From Catajapyx aquilonaris (taxonomy: Eukaryota), in contig KZ537969.1 of the NCBI GenBank assembly GCA_000934665.2, positions 124,001-188,000 of the forward strand: a stretch of 64,000 nt of DNA, given 5' to 3'. The notes beneath the pieces are model-generated. The model made no database searches, had not been told where the DNA came from, and saw only the letters and a list, made by a program, of their open reading frames with translations. Numbering within the stretch: the first letter of the stretch is position 1; every line of letters begins with the position of its first letter. Shown here one piece after another: positions 31,301 through 63,519 of the stretch. The position numbers and the translations under genes were made by a program.

Positions 31301-34120
31301 GACTCGGCTTGCACCTTCTCCAGACATGGCACAAGACAGTGATAAAATGTCACATTGGAGATAACACCTACCCTCAGTATATGACGGAAATGTGTACTGA
31401 AGTCACGGCTCATATAGGGTTGTTGGCCAGTTTCAAGCCGCGCCCATTTTTGCTGGAATTAAAGTGACCGGGATTTTTGTAAAGAGCAACAAACTCCATT
31501 TATCTTCGTAAATGTGTGCCCTTCTTATTTTTTTTTTTTTTTGTCTGGAAGCACACGTGGAGAGACTCCAAGTCTGATAGAATTTTCATGGGCCATTGTT
31601 GGGCTTGGGGTTTATTCTTCGCCTGACCAAAAGCACGTTTTGCCGCTTCCGTCACGTGCCTTCAAGGCTCTGCATACACTTTAATGACATTCCGGCCAAG
31701 TTTTTTTTTGTGTGTGTGGAGGTGTATACATCATAGATTAATCTCAGTATTTTTGCAGTTTACACCATATATGGACATTGCAGCTGACCACCGGTTGAAA
31801 GGTTAGTCTGTTCATTACACCGTACGCGTGAGCTGCTACTCTAATACGCGACATTGTGATTTAACAACGCATGGGCAGGACGCAAATGGATGTACAGGCG
31901 CGATTTATCGCGACGTTGTAAGTGTTTAGGCGTGTATGCAAATGACGCGTAGACTTTATGCGCAATCCTCGTACAAAAAGAAAACTGGGACCATTTGTAC
32001 CAATTAGTTTCGCTCGTACTGCAGTATGGTCAGCTAGGTGCACGTTACATACCGGCACCTTTTGTGTGTATTCAGCCGGGAATTTGTCTCAGCCTTCTCA
32101 TTATATTTGTGTGAAAAATGAAAGAGCAGGTAATAAGACGGCCAGAAGAAGAAGGAAGGCAAGGTGGGAAAGAAGAAGAAGAAGAAAAAAATGAAACAGT
32201 AATGAGCTGTTCAGGCCTTGTCCCAGTAGTGTCGTGAAGTGCCTTTCTCTTGAGATTGTTTCTCACCGTCATCCTACGTGGCAGATATGAATTCCTGTTT
32301 ATGTCACCTAATGCCGGTCGCAAATTGCTTCACGAACTCGATCAGAAAGGTTTTTTCCTTTGCTTCTTTTTGTTATTATTCGCACACCCCTTTTTTTGTT
32401 CGGACGGTTGAGGAACCTCCGGGGATGTTACAGTGGCTGGTGATTATCAAGGGGGTAGTGGACACCTTTTGTGTTGTCCCCCTCGGTTACAATTTCTCAC
32501 GCCTGGTCCGCAAAAGTTGAGGAGAAGCCCTGGCCAAATTTTTTTGTGTCCGGTCCTTTACACTGATCTATGCCACTGTCCTCATGCAGTGGAGCAGTGG
32601 TGGCTGTGTTGCCCGGCCTACTCGTGCGGCTCCAGGGCATGATGGCCCTAAATAAGTAGGGGTTCACACACCCTGTGCATAGTACGTGCAGAGATTTGGG
32701 TTCATTCACAGGCAAAAATTGAGTTGTAATATTTTTGAACTGAACAAATGGTGCCAATGGAAACTTCTCTTCGGGACCTGCAACAATGAGGATTGTAAAG
32801 GCTCCACTTACCTATCAAAATGAGGGACCAACCGCCGAAATCCGGTCTTGTTTTTTGAGTTCCTGGGAAGGCTGGTGTATTTGCTGAGGGTTGCCCTTTC
32901 TTCCCGCGACCATCCTCCTGCTGCTGCTGCTGCATCTTCCCTCCTCTTCCTGCCCTCGCCGAAGACCTCCTCCTGTCCGCTCCAAGAGTGACTGAAGTGG
33001 TCTTCGCCGGTGGAGGACCACCGTCTGGTCTTGGGACGGGTGCTTTGGTTGTTGTTGGACTTGTGGAGGGTCCTGAATGCAATAACGGTGGTGTCGGTGG
33101 TTGTGGTGGTGGTGGTCGCGGGGGCTGTGGGTGGTGGGGTGGGAGACGGTGTGGATAGATTGTTCTGCTTCTGCAGGTGGTTGCTGGTGTTGTTGTTGGT
33201 GTCCACGGAGGAGCCGCGCTTCTTCTTCGGGGTGGAACTGCACGGAGGGCTCCATCCGGTGGAGCTGAGGGATGGGCATGGGGAAGGAGGAGGCTCGATG
33301 TTGCTGCTATTGCTGGTGGTGGTAGGGGCTGTTGAGGTGGTGGCTGTCGTGGGGATGCACAGGATGGCCTTGTGCTCCAGCTGACACGCCACTTCGTCCA
33401 CGTCATCTTCCCGTACGGTGCTGGTGACCCTACTGGGGTTTGACCTGAGATGCTGCTTCAACCTGAGCAACGGGCCGGATTTGACCTTGGTGCGGGCGCC
33501 ACCGTCCGCAGAAGAAGAAGATGCAGAAGAAGGAAGAGATGGAGGAGGAAACAGAATTGCATTGTTGTTGCTACTGTTGCTGCTGCTGGTGGTGTTGTTG
33601 TTCTTGATGTTGACCGCAGCTATCTCGGGGGAGCTACCGATGTTGGATTCCCCCGAGTCCGAAAAGCCCGAGTCCTGGCTCTTGTGGCTGGGCGAGCTCC
33701 TGGAGAACCGGAAGGATCCTCCAGGAGAGACGGGACTGTCCTCCCCGGAGCTCCTCTCCGTGTCCTCCCGGATGCCCTGCAGATCGGTCACGTACGAGTT
33801 GGCGCTTCGTCGAGCCCAGGACGGTAGCGAGCCCAGGAAGCTGCCGCTGTTGTTGTGGCTGCTGTTGTTGGTGTTCTTCGGGGTGGCTGCCATTGTGGTG
33901 GTGGTTGGGGTCCCCGGACCGCTTCCACCCAGGAGATGATGATGGTCCGACTCGAAGTACACCATGCTTCTGCTTCTGGAGCGCTGGAACGGACTGTTGG
34001 TGCTCCGGGGGGTGGAGTTGTTGAGGGCGAGGTTAGCATCGCCGCCGCAGATGGTGCTGTCGCGGTGCATCATGCCGGTGCGATAGGGTTTCAGTCGGGA
34101 GGGTTGTTCATGATCAAAGT
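25378..34120 (-). CDS. insc: Inscuteable spindle-orientation adaptor (exons 34120-32812, 28241-28053, 27644-27362, 27294-27049, 26967-26796, 26623-26448, 26065-25887, 25799-25676, 25509-25378)
   Basis: Pins/LGN-binding segment NPVHAWLRDL...EAECLHTLQSKAI; ARM-like repeats (EAAGVLAQITSPW, AAAALANLTF, ERVQQKAAIALSRLC, NHSDGVLVACLAALRKIA); PDZ-binding end SRQESYV*; splice phases consistent. Confidence 0.92.
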
Positions 34121-51149: not shown

Positions 51150-54114
51150 TGTAATTCTTAATGAAACATGAATTATGAATACATACACTTCATATCAGCA
51201 TGTGTTACAATTACGTATGCACGATGGCAATTACCCACGCGATAACGAGCAAATAAATGAGTCAGGAAGCTAGAGCACTAGTTGGACGAAATAGATATAT
51301 TTTATGGAGGTTGTGACCTCTTTGTCATTCGGGTATGGCAGGTGTGGCATGACGAGTGTGAAGACTTTACTAACGGATCCATGTCTCATTTCCTGAGGCG
51401 CGGGTTACGCTTGAAGGAACCGGACACCAACTTTTATTCTGTGAATATGAAGACGGTTAGTGTATGTGGCCGCATGACTGGATGCGAACTGTAAACTGGA
51501 GCATTTCGTGCAAGAGGCCGATACACTAATATTATACTGATGAGCCTCATTTTTTTTTCGATAACCGACATTGAGGGGGGCTTTTGTCCATCCAACCGGC
51601 CTTGAATTTGGCAACATGGGGGGGACAAACGTTCTCATCAGACAAACCCAGCTGTTCCAGGTGGTCCCTATTCTTCAGTGGATTTAAAGTTCCAGCCAGC
51701 AAAAGGGAAAGTTGAGATGTCCAGTAATAAAAAGCCGGCAGTATAATCAAGAAACCGCGGAGGTTATGCATATAAAATGACAGTTTAATTGCAATAATAG
51801 CAAAAAAAAGCGACTGTCAAAATGACGACTGTAAATGTTCAAAATCCGAAATTCGTTTCCTGGGACTGCCAACTATTATTACCGGGTATTTTGTATGCAA
51901 CCCGGGTTGCATGCATGTTCCGGAAGAATCTTCAGTTTTTTTTTATCGTTAGTCATCACTTAGCATGAGCATTTACTACGCAGTCAACTGTCAAGTTAAA
52001 GTCTCGTTGTATAATTCTACACTCTCGGTATGGTCGGCATCTATGAATACGGGTAGCGTCATATTTTTGCATGGGCAACGACCACTGTTTGTCACCAACC
52101 GAGGTCTTCTCCCTGGAGGCAATCCAACCAAAACAGTGTGGTCTGGATGCCCTTTTGTTTCCCCCATTCGACGAACCATTGCCCATTCATACCCGGTCAT
52201 TGCCCGTACGCGTAAATGTCACAGTGTTGAAAATTTTGGGGGGACTAGAGAGCCCATCAGCAATAACTGTCCTTGGCCATATGTTCAGGAGGGTTCCTCA
52301 ACCGCCCACGACCCTCTTAGCCATCACCCCCTACATTATATTTTTTTGGACGAAGGGGGCACGCGTCCTGCCACGCGACCCAAACATCTGCTACCCGTAC
52401 CAACCCAACAGTGGAAGAATCACAATGGTAACGGTTCTTCGGGGATGTCTTGTCCCCTGTAGATATTTGCACGGCGGTGTCAGTGACATGAGCTGGATTT
52501 GTGCCCACATGTCCACGCCCCAGAAGTCAGGGATTGTCGAAATATTGTGGCGGAGACAATGGGACGAGTGGTGCAGGGCTGTGCACATAAATATGCGCTT
52601 TTACTTTCAGTTTATTGTTCTCCAGTTCGCGGATTGTCATGGAAGAGATCCTGGCTTGTAGGCATCCCGGGTGTCACGAGTGACGCATTGGATGGGTGAC
52701 ATTCAGGCGTTTTTACGTTACAGAACTGGTTTTAAGTTAGCGAGACTTGTTGAATGTTCCAAATGATTTATTGCATTGTTGTTGTAATTTGCATAGTAAT
52801 TACGACAATGTTCGCAGGGATCGAATATGTATTTTTGGTCACTGTCGTTCACATTTCTACCAGCATTGTATATCAATACCATATTGTAAGGACCAAATTA
52901 CTGCGTAAAAATGTAGAATGTATTTTTATGTATGCACTAGTACATATATGCAATGATGCAAATCAAATCGTGCTAGCAAACTGCTCTGACGCACGTTTTC
53001 CAGTTGCCCTTTATAACGCGGCCATTATAGATATAGGCACAGCATCATTCTCTCTATTATACCCATTTAGAAATGCTATGAAGCACAACTTCTAGGAATT
53101 GCAATGATTCGGAGGCCAATGTGGAAATCGCCGCCGTGCTTTTTCATAATCGTCTCACGGCACGGTAAAGCGGATATGATAGAGTATACAAAGTCTCAAA
53201 GGATCCGACGAATGCAGACTGAGATCTAGGCCACATATACCGTCGAATCCATATAACCTGTTACACGTGCAGGCTTCTACTAAAAAGTAATAAAGATAGC
53301 CTAGAATGATAAATCTAAATGAATAAAATTCTAAGTACTTTTTATACAGGTTTACAAAAATAGTGCTGGTACACTAAAGAGAGGGACCACAAGTTGGGCC
53401 ACAAAAATCAGACATTTACCAACTAATTCCCTCAGTTCTATAGTCACACACGTATCATCATTATTTCGATTAATCAGCAGAGGGGTATATAGAGGTCATC
53501 TTTGAGGATTTGGATCAATTTGGCTCAGATTGATCTTGGTGTTGCATCAGACAAGTCGGATCTAATAGTGGCGAAATAATTGAAAATGAGGCTACTTTTA
53601 TACCGATCTATAGACAGCTAATTTTCAAGTCGAATGGTTATCTGCTTGTAAGTTGAGATCACAATTAATATTATTTTCAAGAACGGATTTTGAAATTAAG
53701 ATATTCACATCTGTTGTATATATAGTGGAGACTGTTGGAGATAGAAAATTGAATTGAACAATACTTGTTGTACCCTATATACGTAATGCAATAAACACGA
53801 CGTTTTCAGTAATTTTCTTGCCTTCACAACTCTCACTGCAATGAATAACTTAAAACTTCAGTAAATTGGCGACTTTGTGCTTGTCAGTAGCGTGTGGAAT
53901 CGATCAGAGACAGTTGAAGGCACCTGTACAGTATACATATGGTGTAGCAATCACGCAATTTTCAAGGAAAAGTCGTCAGATGGTAACGTCTTATACAAGT
54001 AGTTGAGTGTAGACACAGAGGGAAAGTGTTGCAATCAGTAGTCGGTTTACTTCTAGACTATTCTCGCTCCGGATTTTATAGAAAAAAAAGTACACTATCA
54101 GCCAAAGTGTCACA

Positions 54115-55884
54115 ATGATGGTCTCATGCGGAAGTGTCACGTGTGTACTCATCTTCTTTACTGGTGTTGTCCACGCAAAGGTCAGTCTCGTGCCTCATGA
54201 TCAGGACTCTGAAGAAAGATTGTTTGCCGAGACAGTGTCCAAGATTCAAGAGGCGGATGGCAGGCTGACCAACTGCTCTGTTGCCATCCTTCATGACGAA
54301 CTAGTGCTGCCAACTGGACTGTCGCCACTGACAACAAGTGTCAACACGTCTATTGTCATTGCTTCCAGCATGCATCGGATTGCAGGAGGGAACAACAATC
54401 CACTGGTGTTGCAGAGGTCGGGACAGTGCTTCATGACTGTCATTTACTCGCATTCAAACGCATATCAAAAAGTGAATTATGACTTATTTGTTGTGGCATT
54501 GAAGTATCCTCGGGGACTGCGTAATTTTAATATTTATCACATCAAAGAAGGGTTGACTACAAAAACTATAAAAGTAGAACTTGAGTGTATGATGAACCGA
54601 GTTGGAATCGACCGGTTTGAGCGGATAAATGGCGAGACACGATTTAGAGTCATCTCGCCTTGTTATTTTTGCGACAATGGAAACTACTCTATGACTATCA
54701 GAAAGAACGTGACATCCGTGGAAACAGCATTTCCTGAATTGGGCACTGTCAACTTCAACGGAAGAAAACTTATCATATGCCACTGTTTTACATACATTAA
54801 TGATATATTTCAGGATTATTTAAATTACCAAACCATAAATTCCGACATTATGAAAAGGTATTCATTTTGCCACCAGCAAATTATGACATTATCTGCAATT
54901 CAGCGTGGCTTTACTTACACTCATCCATATGAAATTAGAAAGATTCTTATAATAACTAAAAGAAATGCAATTCACACTGTATGGGCATTGCATTTGATGC
55001 CATTTAAGTGGACAGTCGCACTTCTCTTGCTGATTGCTGTTGGGATGGTCACCACGGTTATATTTTGCGCCTCTTACAGAAGATGCACCGAGGTGAAATT
55101 GTCCGAGTGGATGAAAACATTCCTCCTGGACACCTTACCTCCTCTCCTGGGACAAGGTCCGGGACTGAAGGAGATGACCCCTCCTGTGAAATTACTAGTG
55201 TTTGTGTACCTTTACTTCTGCCTGCTGCTTTCCAATTACTTCACGATGGATATGGTCGGAAACATGGTGACCCAACCTATGAAGAATGTGGACACTTTGA
55301 AGGATTTGATTGATATGAAATACAGGTGGGGATCCCTGGGTCAGCAGTCATACTACAATGTAATCAGCAACACTACTACCAGTGTGATACATAAGGAAAT
55401 TGCAACCAATTTAGAAATGATATATCCAACTGCAAATTATTATTTTTCTTCCTTGGAGAAATGCATAAGCATTGCCCTTACACAGAAGTACGCCTGTTTG
55501 GTAGAAGACGGATACTGGCAATATTCTTTTAATGTTGACAGTGACCTACACGTTGACCAGCTTTACATTTCGGAGAGTGACCTCCCATATGTGATGGTCG
55601 CCCTGAGGATGAGTAAATACTCAGTCATGTACGAATCTCTGAATAGAGCGTCATTGATTTTGGTTGACATGGGTCTGCTTAGTGGTGTGATGCGCATGGA
55701 ATTGGATTCTGATGCATACGTGTACCAGATGAAGTGGTTCAGGGCAGGGGTTTTGCGTCCGATTGAGGAAAACGGCCCACAACGCTTCCAACTTACCCAG
55801 TTGAAGGCTCCATTTCAGTTGCTGTTGTCTGGTGTAGGATTTTCTATCATATGTTTCATAGTAGAAGTGTTGCGTAAGTCGTAA
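54115..55884 (+). CDS. Divergent ionotropic (chemosensory) receptor of the iGluR-related IR family, intronless, 589 aa
   Basis: Signal peptide; PF.W + M1; pore LLGQG; M3 region LLLSNYFTMDMVGNM; VDTLKDL; LVDMGLL; LTQLKAPFQLLLSG + M4 ending FIVE. Confidence 0.85.
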   Translation: MMVSCGSVTCVLIFFTGVVHAKVSLVPHDQDSEERLFAETVSKIQEADGRLTNCSVAILHDELVLPTGLSPLTTSVNTSIVIASSMHRIAGGNNNPLVLQRSGQCFMTVIYSHSNAYQKVNYDLFVVALKYPRGLRNFNIYHIKEGLTTKTIKVELECMMNRVGIDRFERINGETRFRVISPCYFCDNGNYSMTIRKNVTSVETAFPELGTVNFNGRKLIICHCFTYINDIFQDYLNYQTINSDIMKRYSFCHQQIMTLSAIQRGFTYTHPYEIRKILIITKRNAIHTVWALHLMPFKWTVALLLLIAVGMVTTVIFCASYRRCTEVKLSEWMKTFLLDTLPPLLGQGPGLKEMTPPVKLLVFVYLYFCLLLSNYFTMDMVGNMVTQPMKNVDTLKDLIDMKYRWGSLGQQSYYNVISNTTTSVIHKEIATNLEMIYPTANYYFSSLEKCISIALTQKYACLVEDGYWQYSFNVDSDLHVDQLYISESDLPYVMVALRMSKYSVMYESLNRASLILVDMGLLSGVMRMELDSDAYVYQMKWFRAGVLRPIEENGPQRFQLTQLKAPFQLLLSGVGFSIICFIVEVLRKS

Positions 55885-57214: not shown

Positions 57215-60200
57215 ATGTCTTCCTGCGAGGTGCCGGTGTCGGACATGTCCGGGTACGACCAACTGGGATGTCTGCACGAGATGTTTGGTCGACAAGCGAA
57301 GGAGAGCCCGGACAAGGTGGCGGTGGTGGGTCACCAGGGTCAGAAGGTCACCTTCAGGCAGTTGGAGAGGATGACCGATGCTTTGGCCACGGCTCTCAGG
57401 CATCGGGGGGTCAGGCGAAACAGAATTGTTGGGATTTACATGGAGAGGTGCCTCGAGTTTGTCGTCAGTTACATTGCCATTCTTAAAGCAGGTGAGTCAA
57501 CTTTCGTTTTCGTCATGTCTATTTCATATAACCATTTCATCCTTGCAGGTGGTGGATATCTCCCTATCGAAGTGTCTTACCCACAACCGCTCCTGGAATC
57601 TGTCTTGGAGGATGCTGAACCTGTGGTGGTGTGCACTAAGAAGCACCTGAGTGAGAGGTTGAAGGGGCAAAAGGAAGTGCTCATTTTGGATGATGACTGG
57701 TTGTCTTCACTGGAGGAAGATAATGGTAAACTACCACCCTTCACTGGCCCTCCCTTGGTTGGCCTGGATGATCTGGCTTATACGGTGTACTCCTCTGGAA
57801 CAACTGGAAAACCAAAAGGCATTCGATGTCCCCATCGAGGTGCTGTGTTTTCATACCATTGGCGGCATCTCGCATTTCCTTATGAGGAAGATGACAGGGA
57901 GGCATGTAATGTGTTCTTTGTATGGGAAATGCTGCGACCAATCCTCAAAGGTGAGTTTACCAAAAAAAATCATGGTACCGGTATGGGCCTATAAATATCA
58001 TTGAAATAATTTTGTGTGTGTTGGTAGGTGTCCCAATGTATATCATCCCTGATGATGTCATATACGATCCTCCACGGCTCTGCGAATTCTTGATGCAGAA
58101 TAGGATTACACGAATGCTCTTCACCCCATCCCTTTTGGAAGCAGTCCTGGATACACGTGGCAGCATTGACATGCAGACATCTTTCAGATCGATGAGGTCT
58201 GGATCTCCTTCACCATTTTATGTTAGTAAATGTGTGGCTCAACAGGTGCTTATGATTTTTCTTTTCTTGCAGGCAGATTTGGTTTTGCGGTGAAGTTGTC
58301 ACTGTTGGGCTGCGCAATCGTGTGATGCGAGAAATTCCACACATTCGGCTTCTCAATTTGTACAGCATATCAGAATGCCATGACATTGCATGTTCTGATC
58401 TAACCCACCTGGAAGTTGACCAGTCACAAAAATTCTGCCCAGTTGGCCGCCTTTTCCCTAAAGTTCATGTAGTGATAATGGACTCGGACTTGAACATCCA
58501 ACCTATTGGACTTCCAGGAGAAATCTATGTGGGTGGACCCACATTGGCCCTTGGTTACCTGAATCGTCCTGAACTGAATGCACAGCGTTTTGTGGATGCT
58601 GGGGATTGCAGAGTGTACCGCACTGGTGACTGGGGTTACCTGAGAAGTGACGGAGGGCTTGAGATTTGTGGTCGGTGTGACTCCATGGTTAAAATTAGGG
58701 GCTACAGCATAGAAGTACAGGCTGTTGAAGCTGCCCTGCTTGACCTGCCAATGGTCAACAGCGGATGTGTTCTGGCACTGGGAGAAGAAGGAAGCGATAA
58801 GACACTGGTGGCTTACATTCTTCCAGAGGGGAAGACCAATCGGAGGGAGGTCAGGGCTGCACTCAAAAGGCGGCTGCCTTTCTACATGATTCCAGCCAAG
58901 TTTATATTTTTGGATAGGTATGTGCATTACACATGTTGTAGTTTTTGAAAAATATTCCTACATGTATTAATTTAAAAATTTTGTGGCCAAAAAAACTTGA
59001 AATAATTTTGATGCATTTAATCAAACTCTCACATAAGTTACATTTATAACTTCCAAGTGATTTTAAATTGGAAAAGGCAATGAGCTGTTCAATTACATTT
59101 AGATTTTTCTTTCTAGTCTGCCAATTTTGGAGGCGTCGGGAAAACTGGACAGGAAAGCTCTACCAAAAGTTGACCTAGACAACATGGATGATATTGATCC
59201 TGAGGATCTCCCCTCTACTCCCATGGAGAAGAGATTGGCCAAGAGCTGGTGCGAGGTCCTTCAGCTGAAGGCCGTGGATGTTCAGGAGAGCTTCTTCGAC
59301 CTGGGAGGCCATTCCCTGCAAGCCGCTCGTCTTCTGAACTCAATAAACGAAGATACTGGGCGGGGGATAAGCATGGGAGACCTTTTTGCCCACCCAACGG
59401 TGTCTTCCATGGCATCTTTCTTGGAGGAAGCGGGGAACGGAGGTGATTCAGATGCCTTGCATCCAGATCTGCTAGCAGAAGTCGACAGGCATGATCAAGG
59501 TGTGGTCAAGATTGACATGAGACTCAGGGCATTCTGGAGATCGGTGCAGCTGGCCAGTAACAAGTGGAGTCATGGAAAGGTGCTTCTGACAGGGGCCACT
59601 GGTTTCCTCGGCTCATTTTTGCTGAGGGATCTTCTCATGATGACAAAGGTGAGACATATGTAATAATAGGGAAATTGTTACTAAAAATGCTGTTGCAAAC
59701 ACAAGGAGTATTTTATTACTAAATTAGTGTACCTGTGGCAAAAGCAGTGACCTTCATTAAATAAGAATGATTAACACCTGATCATCTTTGCAGACGACAA
59801 TCTACTGCCTGGTGAGGGAGCTTCCAGGAAGCAGTCTCGAAAGCAGGTTGATGGCAACCTGGACGGAATATGGCATCCTGGGCTCTGCCGATGACGAGTC
59901 TGAAGAGCTTCTGAAACGTTTTCAGTACAGAGTAGTTGCCATCAAGGGCGATGTCACCTTAGTCAACTTGGGAATGACAGAAGATGACTATGCTTATCTT
60001 TCCTATGAAGTGGATTTTGTAATTCATGCTGCTGCAGCAGTCAACCTGGTCTATCCATATGCTGCTTTGCATGGACCTAATGTCTTGGGAACATCAAATG
60101 TACTTGTGTTTGCCTTGAACCATAAGATCAAGCCTATCCATTACATAGGTACAAAAAAAAATTCTCTTGATTTATTATTATGGTTTTTCCTTAAAACATG

Positions 60201-62310
60201 CATTGTCCATTGCAACACAGGCACAGATGCTGTGTTCCCTCCTGGCTTGCAAGACTGCCCTGAAGATGCAGACATGAACAAGTATGCAGGCTTGCTTACT
60301 GACGGATATTCCCAGTCAAAATGGGTCGCAGAGCAGCTGATCTTGCGTGCCAGGGCTCGAGGCCTGCCAGCTGCAGTGTACAGGTGTGGCAACATGAGTG
60401 CAGAGAAGGATGCGGCCCACTGGAACTCAAAGGACTTCACACTTCTCATGCTGCAAGGCTGCGTTTTGACTGGGGCAGCCCCAATGGCTGACTGGCAGAT
60501 TGAAATGACTCCTGTGGACTTCATCAGTAAGATTTTGGTCCAGATGACGCAGAACATCATGCAGAGTCTGGGGAAGGTGTTTCACATTGTCAACAGCACC
60601 ACCATGGATTCACAGTGAGTTGTAAAGTGCTGCTATTGGCAAATACATTCTCAGGCCAGGCTTCTGGCATGATTGGAGTAATATTAATCTTTTGTTATTG
60701 CACAGAATTGCATGGCAGCTGTTGAAAGTGGAAGGTTACCCCGTAGAGGTGATTCCATTCAATGAATGGCGCAATGCAGTAGAAGAGGCAACTGTGCAGC
60801 AGCCGCAAAAGAAAGAGCTGGCCAACCTACTCAGGCTTGTTGATGACATGGTCAAGTGAGTGTAACTGACTTAATTTTCACAAAAAATATTACAGTGAAT
60901 TTGGAAAGACTGCTTGTCGCTGCAAAACGTGGGCACTGGGCATATTTTTATTGCTTATTGCTCTGCTACTTACAGAGAGGAGTCATTTTTCTCCCAACTG
61001 AGCACATTCCAGCAGAAGAATCTGACTGCTGTCCTCGAGGCAAATGGAGAGACCTACCCCCCTGTGAACGTGGATCTGCTGAAGTCGTATGTGAGGAAGA
61101 TGGCAAAGAGGGGGCTTCTTCCTCGACCTCTGCGGAAATCAATGGCACGGAGTAAGTTGACCTGCAAAATTCAAAAATGACATGAAGACAGTAATATGCC
61201 TGAATAGCTTTCTGTAAGCTGGCTAATAGGTGAAAATTAATTTCATTATTACTACTGGTTATCCTGAAGGTGATGGAAGCTCTAAAGGCAGACTTATTAC
61301 ATTCATTAACATCTTTCCTGTAGCTTCCTTCTTCCCAAGCAACCCAACCCTAATTGGGCAGGTGGCCATTGTAACTGGGGCCAGCAGCGGGATCGGCTCA
61401 GCAGTGGCTACTCATTTGGCTGCTGCTGGAGTGCGTGTTGCCCTCGTGGCCAGACGCGAGGATCTCCTCAAGGGACTCCAGAAGTCAATTGAGGAGAGTG
61501 GCGGGGTGGCTATCTGTGTAAAGGCAGATGTCCGCAGCCGCTCCCAGATGGCTGAAGCGGTCAAGCATGTGGAGAATCTGCTGGGTCCTGTGGATATCCT
61601 CATCAACAACGCAGGGGTCATGTACTACACCATGATGGCCAACTGTCGCCAGGACGAGTGGGACCAGCAGGTGGAAGTGAACATAAACGGTGTTCTTAAC
61701 GCGGTTGGGGCTGTGCTTCCAGGGATGGTTGAGAGGGAGGAAGGACACATTGTAAACATGAGTTCAGATGCGGGGAGGAAGGCTTTTGCAGGGTTAGCAG
61801 TGTATAGTGGGACAAAGCATTTTGTTGAGGGATTTTCCAGAGCCATGAGAGAGGAGCTGGTTGGAAAGGGTGTGAAGGTCACTACCATACAGCCAGGTGA
61901 CGTTGCTACAGGCCTGCATGCGAAGTCAACAGACCAGCAAGTACGTTATGCAATACTGCAACAAAAATGATCTCAAATCCGTATTAGTGGAAATTTCTTA
62001 AACACTCCTGAGCCAAGCCGCTTGCGACTCAGGCGCTAACAAAATACCCACCATTACGGATCCAGCTAGTTTTTGTTATCGTAAAATAGCCTGACAGTGC
62101 AGTACAACAGCCAACTGCCAAAAGCGTTGCAATTACTTCAAATTTTGAATGCTGATTGTATTACAGGCAAAGGAAGCATATGACTGCAGTCAACAGTATG
62201 AGATGCTCAACCCTGAGGATGTTGCAAGAGCTGTCCTATTCGCTGTGTCGCAGCCCCAACACTGCGCAATCAACGAGATCCTCATTGAGCCTAAACTTGC
62301 CCCCATTTAA
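57215..62310 (+). CDS. ATRR: NRPS-like A-T-R-R enzyme, glycine betaine reductase ATRR-like (exons 57215-57491, 57549-57950, 58028-58196, 58273-58917, 59117-59648, 59794-60148, 60221-60614, 60706-60855, 60976-61151, 61324-61940, 62167-62310)
   Basis: A domain [43 protein letters not shown] domain FFDLGGHSL; thioester reductase [10 protein letters not shown]...YSQSK; C-terminal [20 protein letters not shown]; ten GT-AG introns keep one frame. Confidence 0.9.
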
Positions 62311-62752
62311 TTCGGAGATGTTGAACCTGTTTTTCATGCTTCTAACTCTGTCACTACTAGTAGTGTGCTTCTGCTAATCAAGATTCTTCCATAATCTTTC
62401 TCATGGGTTACCTTAGTGGCGTAGCATAACGATGAAAAACCTGAAGTAATTTATTCATTTCAAATCCTGGCCAAGACAATTTTCTCACAGCACTTTATAC
62501 TTCTATAATGAAAGGTTTCAAATATATTCTCATATGCATTCCTGTCAGAATGACTTGATTCAATACGATGTATTGCACAGTTTTATTTATGACCTGGTCA
62601 AATGTGACAAAAGTCCATTTCCTGTATCATTAAAGACTTTTATTGTACTGCACTTTCCACTTATATCAATTCCTTTGAACAATATCATATTATTTACAAC
62701 AGTCATTCACAGAGTCACAAGCACATACATAGAAATTTGATGCTCAAGTCAA

Positions 62753-63450
62753 TCACGCCTTCTCCTCTTTCTCCCGGTTAAACTTTTCCAGCTCTTTCAA
62801 GAACTGCGCCTTGGGTTTCATGATGTTGGGCCTGTCTCCCCTACACTTGGGGCAGTACCACTTCCCTTTAGGCTTGGTTGCAAGTCCTACACATGAGAAG
62901 TGGAACCATTCTATCGGGCACAGGTCGTTGTCACAACCAATCATCTCTCCATAAGACACCTGGAAGCAAGATTATTAAATAGTGAGCATTTCCGAAGCAA
63001 GCTTGTGAGACATGATGACTATGTCACTTCAGATGATATGAAATCAGTCCGGTCATGCAAAAGTCCTCACCTGATCACACAGGCAGTACGTCGGTTCGTC
63101 TGGATCAATCGGGATGTCTGGCGGGGAATCTTCCCTTTCCTTCTCCTTCTCCTGCTTGCTCTTCCTCTTCTTCTTTCTGTTTCCACCCACGCCTCCCCCG
63201 ACCCCACCACCCATGCCACCTCCCCCACCTGCTCCACCTCCACCCCCTCCGCCTCCTCCGCCTCCTCCCTTCTTCGCTGATGCAGCTGAAGCAGAACATA
63301 GGGCCAGGAGGGGCTTGTCCAGGAGCAGATCCATGGCAGAATCATTGCAATGGGTGGCCTCTCCTCGAGTACGGCGGGCTCGCTTTGACTGACGCTCACC
63401 TGAGTGAAGGTCACGTGAGGAGTCCCCGTTGTCATGGTCACGACCTATGT
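62753..63450 (-). CDS. ING: Inhibitor of growth (ING1/ING2-like) PHD protein, last two exons (63450-63072, 62959-62753); continues beyond the window
   Basis: [55 protein letters not shown]; basic NLS region and poly-Gly tract. Confidence 0.92.
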
Positions 63451-63519
63451 CTTTAGTGGGAAACAAGGTTAATTAATGAGTACTCTGGCCTAATGCACAT
63501 CTTAAAGTCCGGACTTTGG

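Follow-up and report, generated by a model that had tools for sequence, protein, structure and literature searches.

The locus described here raises the question of whether an arthropod can reduce glycine betaine to choline with a single enzyme. In the assembly of Catajapyx aquilonaris (GenBank GCA_000934665.2), we analyzed 64,000 nucleotides of contig KZ537969.1 (forward-strand positions 124,001 to 188,000), referred to below as the window and numbered from its first letter, and followed up an earlier note on a gene at 57215–62310. The gene is probably this organism's orthologue of ATRR, a single-module carboxylate reductase resembling nonribosomal peptide synthetases (NRPSs), and an arthropod copy that stands beside the sampled insects. 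Reduction of betaine to choline is the best reading of the enzyme, and we hold it likely with slightly more reserve. ATRR of Aspergillus nidulans (AN5318) was described by Hai, Huang and Tang in 2019 as an NRPS-like reductase that converts glycine betaine to choline (bioRxiv 10.1101/559534). For the window enzyme, the substrate, the cofactor and any part in physiology, for instance the recovery of choline from betaine that is stored or eaten, are proposed from homology to the A. nidulans enzyme.

Eleven exons on the + strand, placed by eye and with a script, join into one frame of 1286 codons followed by a TAA stop at 62308–62310, and all ten introns are of the GT..AG type. The in-frame model of the earlier note, including the joint at 61151/61324, was recovered with the same coordinates. 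The frame contains an adenylation (A) domain, a carrier (T) domain, a thioester reductase (R1) and a short-chain dehydrogenase (R2), distributed as follows.

57215–57491, + strand: exon 1, start of the A domain, with the ATG at 57215 (frame and Pfam).
57549–57950, + strand: exon 2, A domain with the A3 motif and, at 57911–57925, the pocket segment V214 F215 F216 V217 W218.
58028–58196, + strand: exon 3, A domain, placed by its GT-AG borders and frame and aligning within the orthologues.
58273–58917, + strand: exon 4, second half of the A domain, with the YRTGD and KIRGYSIE motifs.
Within exon 4, + strand: pocket residues W286 (58280–58282), C288, L312, D320 (58382–58384) and I321, located by alignment.
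59117–59648, + strand: exon 5, the A10 lysine K507, the T domain with the GGHS serine Ser564 (59313–59315), and the start of R1 with its TGATGFLG loop.
59794–60148, + strand: exon 6, thioester reductase R1 (NAD_binding_4, TIGR01746).
60221–60614, + strand: exon 7, R1 with the catalytic Tyr823 (60307–60309) and Lys827.
60706–60855, + strand: exon 8, C-terminal part of R1, with a weak match to positions 274–316 of the TIGR01746 model.
60976–61151, + strand: exon 9, end of R1 and linker to R2.
61324–61940, + strand: exon 10, short-chain dehydrogenase R2 with TGASSGIG, NNAG, Ser1180, Tyr1194 and Lys1198 (adh_short).
Within exon 10, + strand: Gly1052 (61377–61379) and Tyr1194 (61803–61805), located by motifs and alignment.
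62167–62310, + strand: exon 11, which ends R2 and holds the stop (NCBIfam matches to the short-chain dehydrogenase C-terminus).

Pfam searches with the exon translations returned, in order, AMP-binding (124.8 + 43.8 bits), AMP-binding_C, PP-binding (62 bits), NAD_binding_4 (151.6 bits over exons 6 and 7, starting in exon 5) and adh_short (196.5 bits, exon 10), and the NCBIfam thioester reductase domain model TIGR01746 scored 180.3 bits. The order A-T-R1-R2 inside a single spliced frame is the domain order of ATRR. The motifs are intact in the A domain (A3 and A10 Lys507), in the carrier domain (GGHS Ser564), in R1 (TGATGFLG, Tyr823 and Lys827) and in R2 (TGASSGIG with Gly1052, Ser1180, and Tyr1194 with Lys1198). 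Both the four domains with intact motifs and the ATRR order had been claimed in the earlier note, and Pfam, NCBIfam and the motif positions agree with these claims. The translation of exon 3 alone gave no Pfam match. A second in-frame ATG at 57245 (Met11) lies closer to the N-termini of the orthologues than the ATG at 57215, and residue 3 of most orthologues aligns with residue 14 of the window protein when the spliced model is compared by BLAST.

Contigs of one public sequencing run, the single run found to contain the stretch and of unrecorded kind (none listed as RNA contained it), served as evidence for splicing, with 31 letters as the criterion for counting a bridge. Four contigs match the region at at least 99% identity without a single mismatch. 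The segments missing from them are precisely the introns predicted at 58917/59117, 60614/60706, 60855/60976 and 61940/62167, and the contigs therefore derive from spliced RNA. The shorter side of the 61940/62167 joint spans 255 letters, the 60855/60976 joint is firm, and exon 8 has joints supported on both sides; a contig of the run also covers 58373–58623 within exon 4. The ATRR gene is genuine and expressed, carries introns and belongs to an animal. Introns 1 (57492–57548, 57 nt) and 6 (60149–60220, 72 nt) are multiples of three, free of stops, and shown as read-through in the raw list of open reading frames (ORFs); if retained, they would add 19 and 24 residues, respectively, with the frame intact, and neither spot is covered by a contig.

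Relatives were collected by a protein search with exon 4, in which longer proteins were requested; 843 matches at E ≤1e-10 were found among 5163 candidates, and the best 120 were listed. In BLAST comparisons with the spliced model, 115 of these 120 are ATRR-like animal proteins with 43–63% identity over the best aligned segment, many of them aligning from about residue 10 to 1286 at 47–62% identity, and the remaining five are condensation-domain NRPSs (1623–1733 residues, 32–36% identity). Among the matches listed, the best are from Anabrus (62%), Gryllus (61%) and Schistocerca (59%). The listed insects belong to Orthoptera, Phasmatodea, Blattodea and Hemiptera, with one dipteran fragment, and the other listed relatives come from a brachiopod, molluscs, annelids, nemerteans, a flatworm, cnidarians, Trichoplax, echinoderms, hemichordates, tunicates and nematodes. 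The Nematostella protein is named "glycine betaine reductase ATRR" by NCBI and the Haliotis protein "ATRR-like", and a Globodera protein (P0114) is about 46% identical to the window protein over nearly its full length. Several relatives carry the full four-domain protein on contigs of 4.1–5.5 kb, which leave no space for introns and are therefore intron-free and transcript-like.

A search of representative proteins with a profile of six animal proteins gave five ATRR-like rows among 150 listed, none of them known to be fungal (one is from a psyllid, the others are animal or unnamed); the list is dominated by giant NRPSs because several A domains each add up in score. Fungal sequences were reached by using as a query a metagenome locus (L006), which is intron-free and encodes 1370 codons in the A-T-R-R order. 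Its matches came from diatoms, labyrinthulids, ichthyosporeans and cryptophytes, followed by animals, with a single protein from a fungus, Xylaria P0357. With P0357 as the query, 120 proteins were listed, of which 30 are unnamed, nearly all the named ones are fungal, and five are from Aspergillus. P0357 is 67–69% identical to the listed Aspergillus orthologues, and the window protein aligns with it over residues 20–1286 at 37.4% identity (789 bits).

A quick maximum-likelihood tree of 61 rows combined the window protein with 34 animal, 8 protist, 9 fungal and 9 metagenome sequences and was rooted on L038, a metagenome row without the FFxWE pocket segment; the partial row L007 was left out. The 12 insect rows form a group (support 99) that has the window protein as its sister (support 100 for the 13 together). 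Within the animals, the arthropods, nematodes, molluscs, echinoderms and tunicates each cohere, which fits vertical descent. At the deeper branches, to be read with care given a quick search, one model and one long outgroup branch, the animals and most protists form a clade (support 97), and the fungi are monophyletic (100) and join bacterial-looking metagenome A-T-R genes at 86. The FFxWE segment is present in every row of the window's clade having that region, the outgroup row L038 excepted. By the model scores given below, the protein belongs among ATRR-type enzymes rather than Lys2 or the carboxylic acid reductases (CARs); a grouping with the latter two would have spoken against the earlier note. 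Two of the metagenome loci, L029 (961–4745) and L003 (994–4902), are operon-like: behind an A-T-R gene carrying FFxWE lies a second ORF, which encodes a short-chain dehydrogenase on its own, and the pair overlaps by 4 bases in L029. The L029 dehydrogenase was considered as an R2 orthologue and set aside at only 32% identity to the window R2; orthology is not claimed.

The substrate pocket was compared in a 55-row alignment, with A. heteromorphus P0471 as the reference and Aspergillus orthologues of section Nigri standing in for the A. nidulans sequence. In P0471, F201, F202, W204, W270 and E304 have the very residue numbers reported for A. nidulans ATRR, and it can therefore stand in for the characterized enzyme. 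For the latter, a cage of F201, W204 and W270 was proposed to bind the quaternary ammonium group with E304 as the anionic partner, and the Asp equivalent to D235 of PheA is not conserved (bioRxiv 10.1101/559534). The alignment gave the following correspondences between the window protein and Aspergillus.

Window V214: Aspergillus V200.
Window F215: Aspergillus F201.
Window F216: Aspergillus F202.
Window W218: Aspergillus W204.
Window W286: Aspergillus W270.
Window C288: Aspergillus N272.
Window L312: Aspergillus C296.
Window D320: Aspergillus E304.
Window I321: Aspergillus I305.
Window K507: Aspergillus K507.

All three cage aromatics are kept in the window protein (F215, W218 and W286). Its Tyr823/Lys827 and Tyr1194/Lys1198 align with both Aspergillus catalytic Tyr/Lys pairs. 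The published landmarks of A. nidulans beyond the A domain are Y811 in R1, Y1178 in R2 and G1036 in the R2 NADPH loop (bioRxiv 10.1101/559534). Thus F201, W204, W270, Y811, G1036 and Y1178 are the same residues at window positions 215, 218, 286, 823, 1052 and 1194, where the match of G1036 with G1052 rests on the motif and the numbering offset and the others were aligned through the Aspergillus orthologues. The earlier note held that the Asp of amino-acid-activating A domains is replaced by an aromatic FFVWE segment. The Asp is indeed gone and the segment aligns with the published cage; the position itself is Val214, and the aromatics F215, F216 and W218 follow it. Window F258 was tried as Stachelhaus position 278, but this was a guess with an unreliable mapping and was dropped. 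Among the best 60 of 66 solved-structure matches to the exon 2 fragment, none is named ATRR.

Conservation of the pocket was followed in the 82 animal homologues of 1200–1460 residues chosen for this alignment. F215, W218 and D320 are kept in all 82, F216 in 81 and W286 in 59. In the other 23, the W286 column holds Ile, Val, Leu or Met (for example, sea stars, octopus, Capitella and several Hemiptera) or His (plant-parasitic nematodes), which suggests that pocket tuning differs between animal lineages. The acidic column is Asp in 82/82 animal homologues and Glu in 9/9 fungal rows. The window protein differs from Aspergillus at three aligned pocket positions and the plant-parasitic nematode rows at five, including the His in the 286 column; these five differences and the His/Ile-variable site described for nematode ATRR (PMC11050029) match the alignment and serve as a cross-check of its columns.

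On this basis, the F215/W218/W286 cage of the A domain, beside D320, would bind a small acid with a quaternary ammonium group, of which glycine betaine is the likeliest, for adenylation by this domain, and the acyl group would pass as a thioester to the phosphopantetheine of Ser564. R1 (Tyr823) would then use NADPH (reduced nicotinamide adenine dinucleotide phosphate) to convert the thioester to betaine aldehyde, which the fused R2 (Tyr1194) would reduce to choline with a second NADPH. Mutation of either tyrosine in the fungal enzyme stops only the corresponding step, and choline is a feedback inhibitor (bioRxiv 10.1101/559534); both properties may carry over to the window enzyme. The two enzymes are alike in the A-T-R1-R2 order and nearly equal in length, but the window protein is only 37% identical to the fungal orthologue P0357 and has Asp320 for E304, Cys288 for N272 and Leu312 for C296. 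In addition, the window gene has ten introns, and fungal ATRR lies in its own clade, apart from the animals and protists.

Several results weigh against betaine as the substrate, and they bear on an alternative that we regard as unlikely, though not negligible, in which an enzyme of the same family performs the same two-step reduction on another small onium, aromatic or amino acid and yields an amino alcohol other than choline. Asp320 is one methylene shorter than the fungal Glu, and Cys288 in place of Asn and Leu312 in place of Cys/Val are further differences in the pocket; the Asp is found in every animal homologue aligned and the third cage Trp is absent from 23/82. Fungal ATRR discriminates strictly by substrate size (bioRxiv 10.1101/559534), so even minor changes of the pocket could matter. 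In the tree, the nearest relatives of the animal clade are protists and not fungal ATRR, so fungal ATRR is a cousin of the animal genes. The A-T-R1-R2 order and a near-identical pocket are also found in PtNRPS1, from the diatom Phaeodactylum tricornutum, yet this enzyme is reported to turn tryptophan into tryptophanol and to bind aromatic acids including salicylates (PMC13194791). Over the first 400 residues of its published sequence, it shares the N-x-F-F-V-W-E segment, one residue out of register (Pt F214, F215 and W217), but has Phe285, Asn287 and Glu319 where the window protein has Trp286, Cys288 and Asp320; fungi also have Trp where PtNRPS1 has Phe. A similar pocket with another substrate means that architecture and a cage-like pocket alone do not fix betaine use. 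The nematode enzymes (MiATRR and its orthologues from plant-parasitic species), studied in 2024 by yeast tolerance and RNA interference, support betaine use indirectly (PMC11050029). They are alike to the window enzyme in being animal-encoded and in having four domains and the Cys/Leu/Asp animal-type pocket, and unlike it in carrying His (or Ile, per PMC11050029) in place of the cage Trp286 and in forming a separate animal lineage in the tree. With this more divergent pocket they still relieved betaine toxicity in yeast (PMC11050029), and the window protein keeps the three cage aromatics with an acidic residue and has Val214 in place of the amino-acid-selecting Asp, all of which argue against another substrate.

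The fusion of R1 to R2 met a further adverse point. The earlier note had proposed RNA evidence for the 61151/61324 junction; one spliced contig does cross it, although no more than 27 letters lie beyond the joint, fewer than the criterion for a bridge requires. Exons 10 and 11 as a separate short-chain dehydrogenase gene, leaving an A-T-R gene upstream, would fit this short overlap, the R2-less isoforms in databases (for example, Nematostella, 1085 residues, and Adelges, 1021 residues) and the A-T-R-only forms of some diatoms. The joint is nevertheless GT-AG, in frame and crossed by the contig, and the 82 animal homologues align through the end of R2, some of them on intron-free contigs of 4–5 kb. 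Two observations support the fused form, namely that exon 10 offers no in-frame Met ahead of its glycine-rich nucleotide-binding loop and that the relatives encode the whole four-domain protein, and we consider a separate gene very improbable. A Lys2-type aminoadipate reductase or a CAR is an exceedingly improbable identity. Lys2, bacterial CAR and insect Ebony share the A and carrier core, and Lys2 and CAR also the thioester reductase, and a protist relative bears the source label "L-2-aminoadipate reductase". The fused R2 dehydrogenase is present in the window protein and in none of the three, and the pocket is of the ATRR type. Ebony has an amine-selecting C-terminal domain in place of reductases. 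The Lys2 model TIGR03443 scored 55.6, 66.7, 71.2 and 131.7 bits on exon pieces (about 325 as a simple sum) and the CAR model NF041592 25.8 and 86.7 bits (about 113, likewise a simple sum), far under the cut-offs of 1030.1 and 1300, which were not reached. Another animal-encoded single-module NRPS with a terminal reductase yielding an alcohol is FmtATR of the mollusc bursatellin pathway, which has an N-terminal formylation domain, a tyrosine-activating A domain and no R2, its single R domain performing a four-electron reduction (PMC11869996). Unlike FmtATR, the window protein has the adh_short R2, and exons 1 and 2 gave no Pfam match to a formyltransferase domain.

The surroundings of the gene bear on its origin. 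Upstream, at 54082–55884 on the + strand, an intronless ORF of 600 codons resembles arthropod ionotropic-receptor clusters (protein atlas score 0.97), although it reaches only 17 bits, below the cut-off, on Pfam Lig_chan. Downstream, on the − strand, lies an ING-type PHD finger, for which the best solved-structure match is ING1 (E 9.6e-27), with ING2 also at about 1e-26. This ING-family gene (62311–63472), with its PHD-finger exon at 62753–62971 and a Gly-rich exon upstream, converges on ATRR. The contig over the 3′ end of ATRR has 1318 letters, 957 of them placed, up to 62700; it runs towards or into the 3′ end of the ING gene, and the two 3′ ends may overlap. Elsewhere in the window, 32001–34000 has the highest G+C (0.539) of any 2-kb interval in the whole sequence, with a strongly negative AT skew of −0.184.

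Animals rarely have NRPS-like genes, and some animals acquired theirs horizontally according to the title of a rotifer paper (PMC11258130), which would be in keeping with contamination or with recent horizontal transfer from a fungal or bacterial source. A microbial contaminant is ruled out by the introns and the animal-gene neighbours. Since the gene has ten spliceosomal introns, four of them confirmed exactly by spliced contigs, and lies between a receptor gene of arthropod type and an ING gene, insects are its nearest relatives in the tree, and the identity to the single fungal sequence compared is 37%, we consider this origin extremely improbable. The position of the gene between animal genes, as the earlier note had described it, is borne out by the spliced introns, the ING1-like PHD match and the receptor-like ORF, the last with its sub-threshold Lig_chan score. 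The same note had presented the route as missing from the textbook model arthropods, while allowing for homologs in other invertebrates, and the novelty this implied did not hold: the family is found across animal phyla, including many insects, NCBI uses the ATRR name for animal proteins, and atrr genes in invertebrates were noted in print in 2019 (bioRxiv 10.1101/559534) and again in the nematode paper (PMC11050029).

In summary, the window gene is an ordinary member of a family widespread in animals, many insects included. Our literature search, which covered few subscription journals, found no paper on an arthropod ATRR, and the arthropod enzymes appear uncharacterized. Insects are regarded as needing dietary choline. 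We suggest, tentatively, that ATRR is an ancestral metazoan gene kept in this arthropod and in many other invertebrates as a one-enzyme route to choline from glycine betaine, either stored or taken up with the diet, or else that the Cys/Leu/Asp pocket marks a shift to another onium substrate and an undescribed metabolite. If the enzyme works like its fungal relative, the abundant osmolyte glycine betaine would be converted directly to choline, the reverse of the textbook conversion of choline to betaine, and this would have consequences for the choline nutrition of arthropods, for their osmotic adaptation and for the supply of their membrane lipids.

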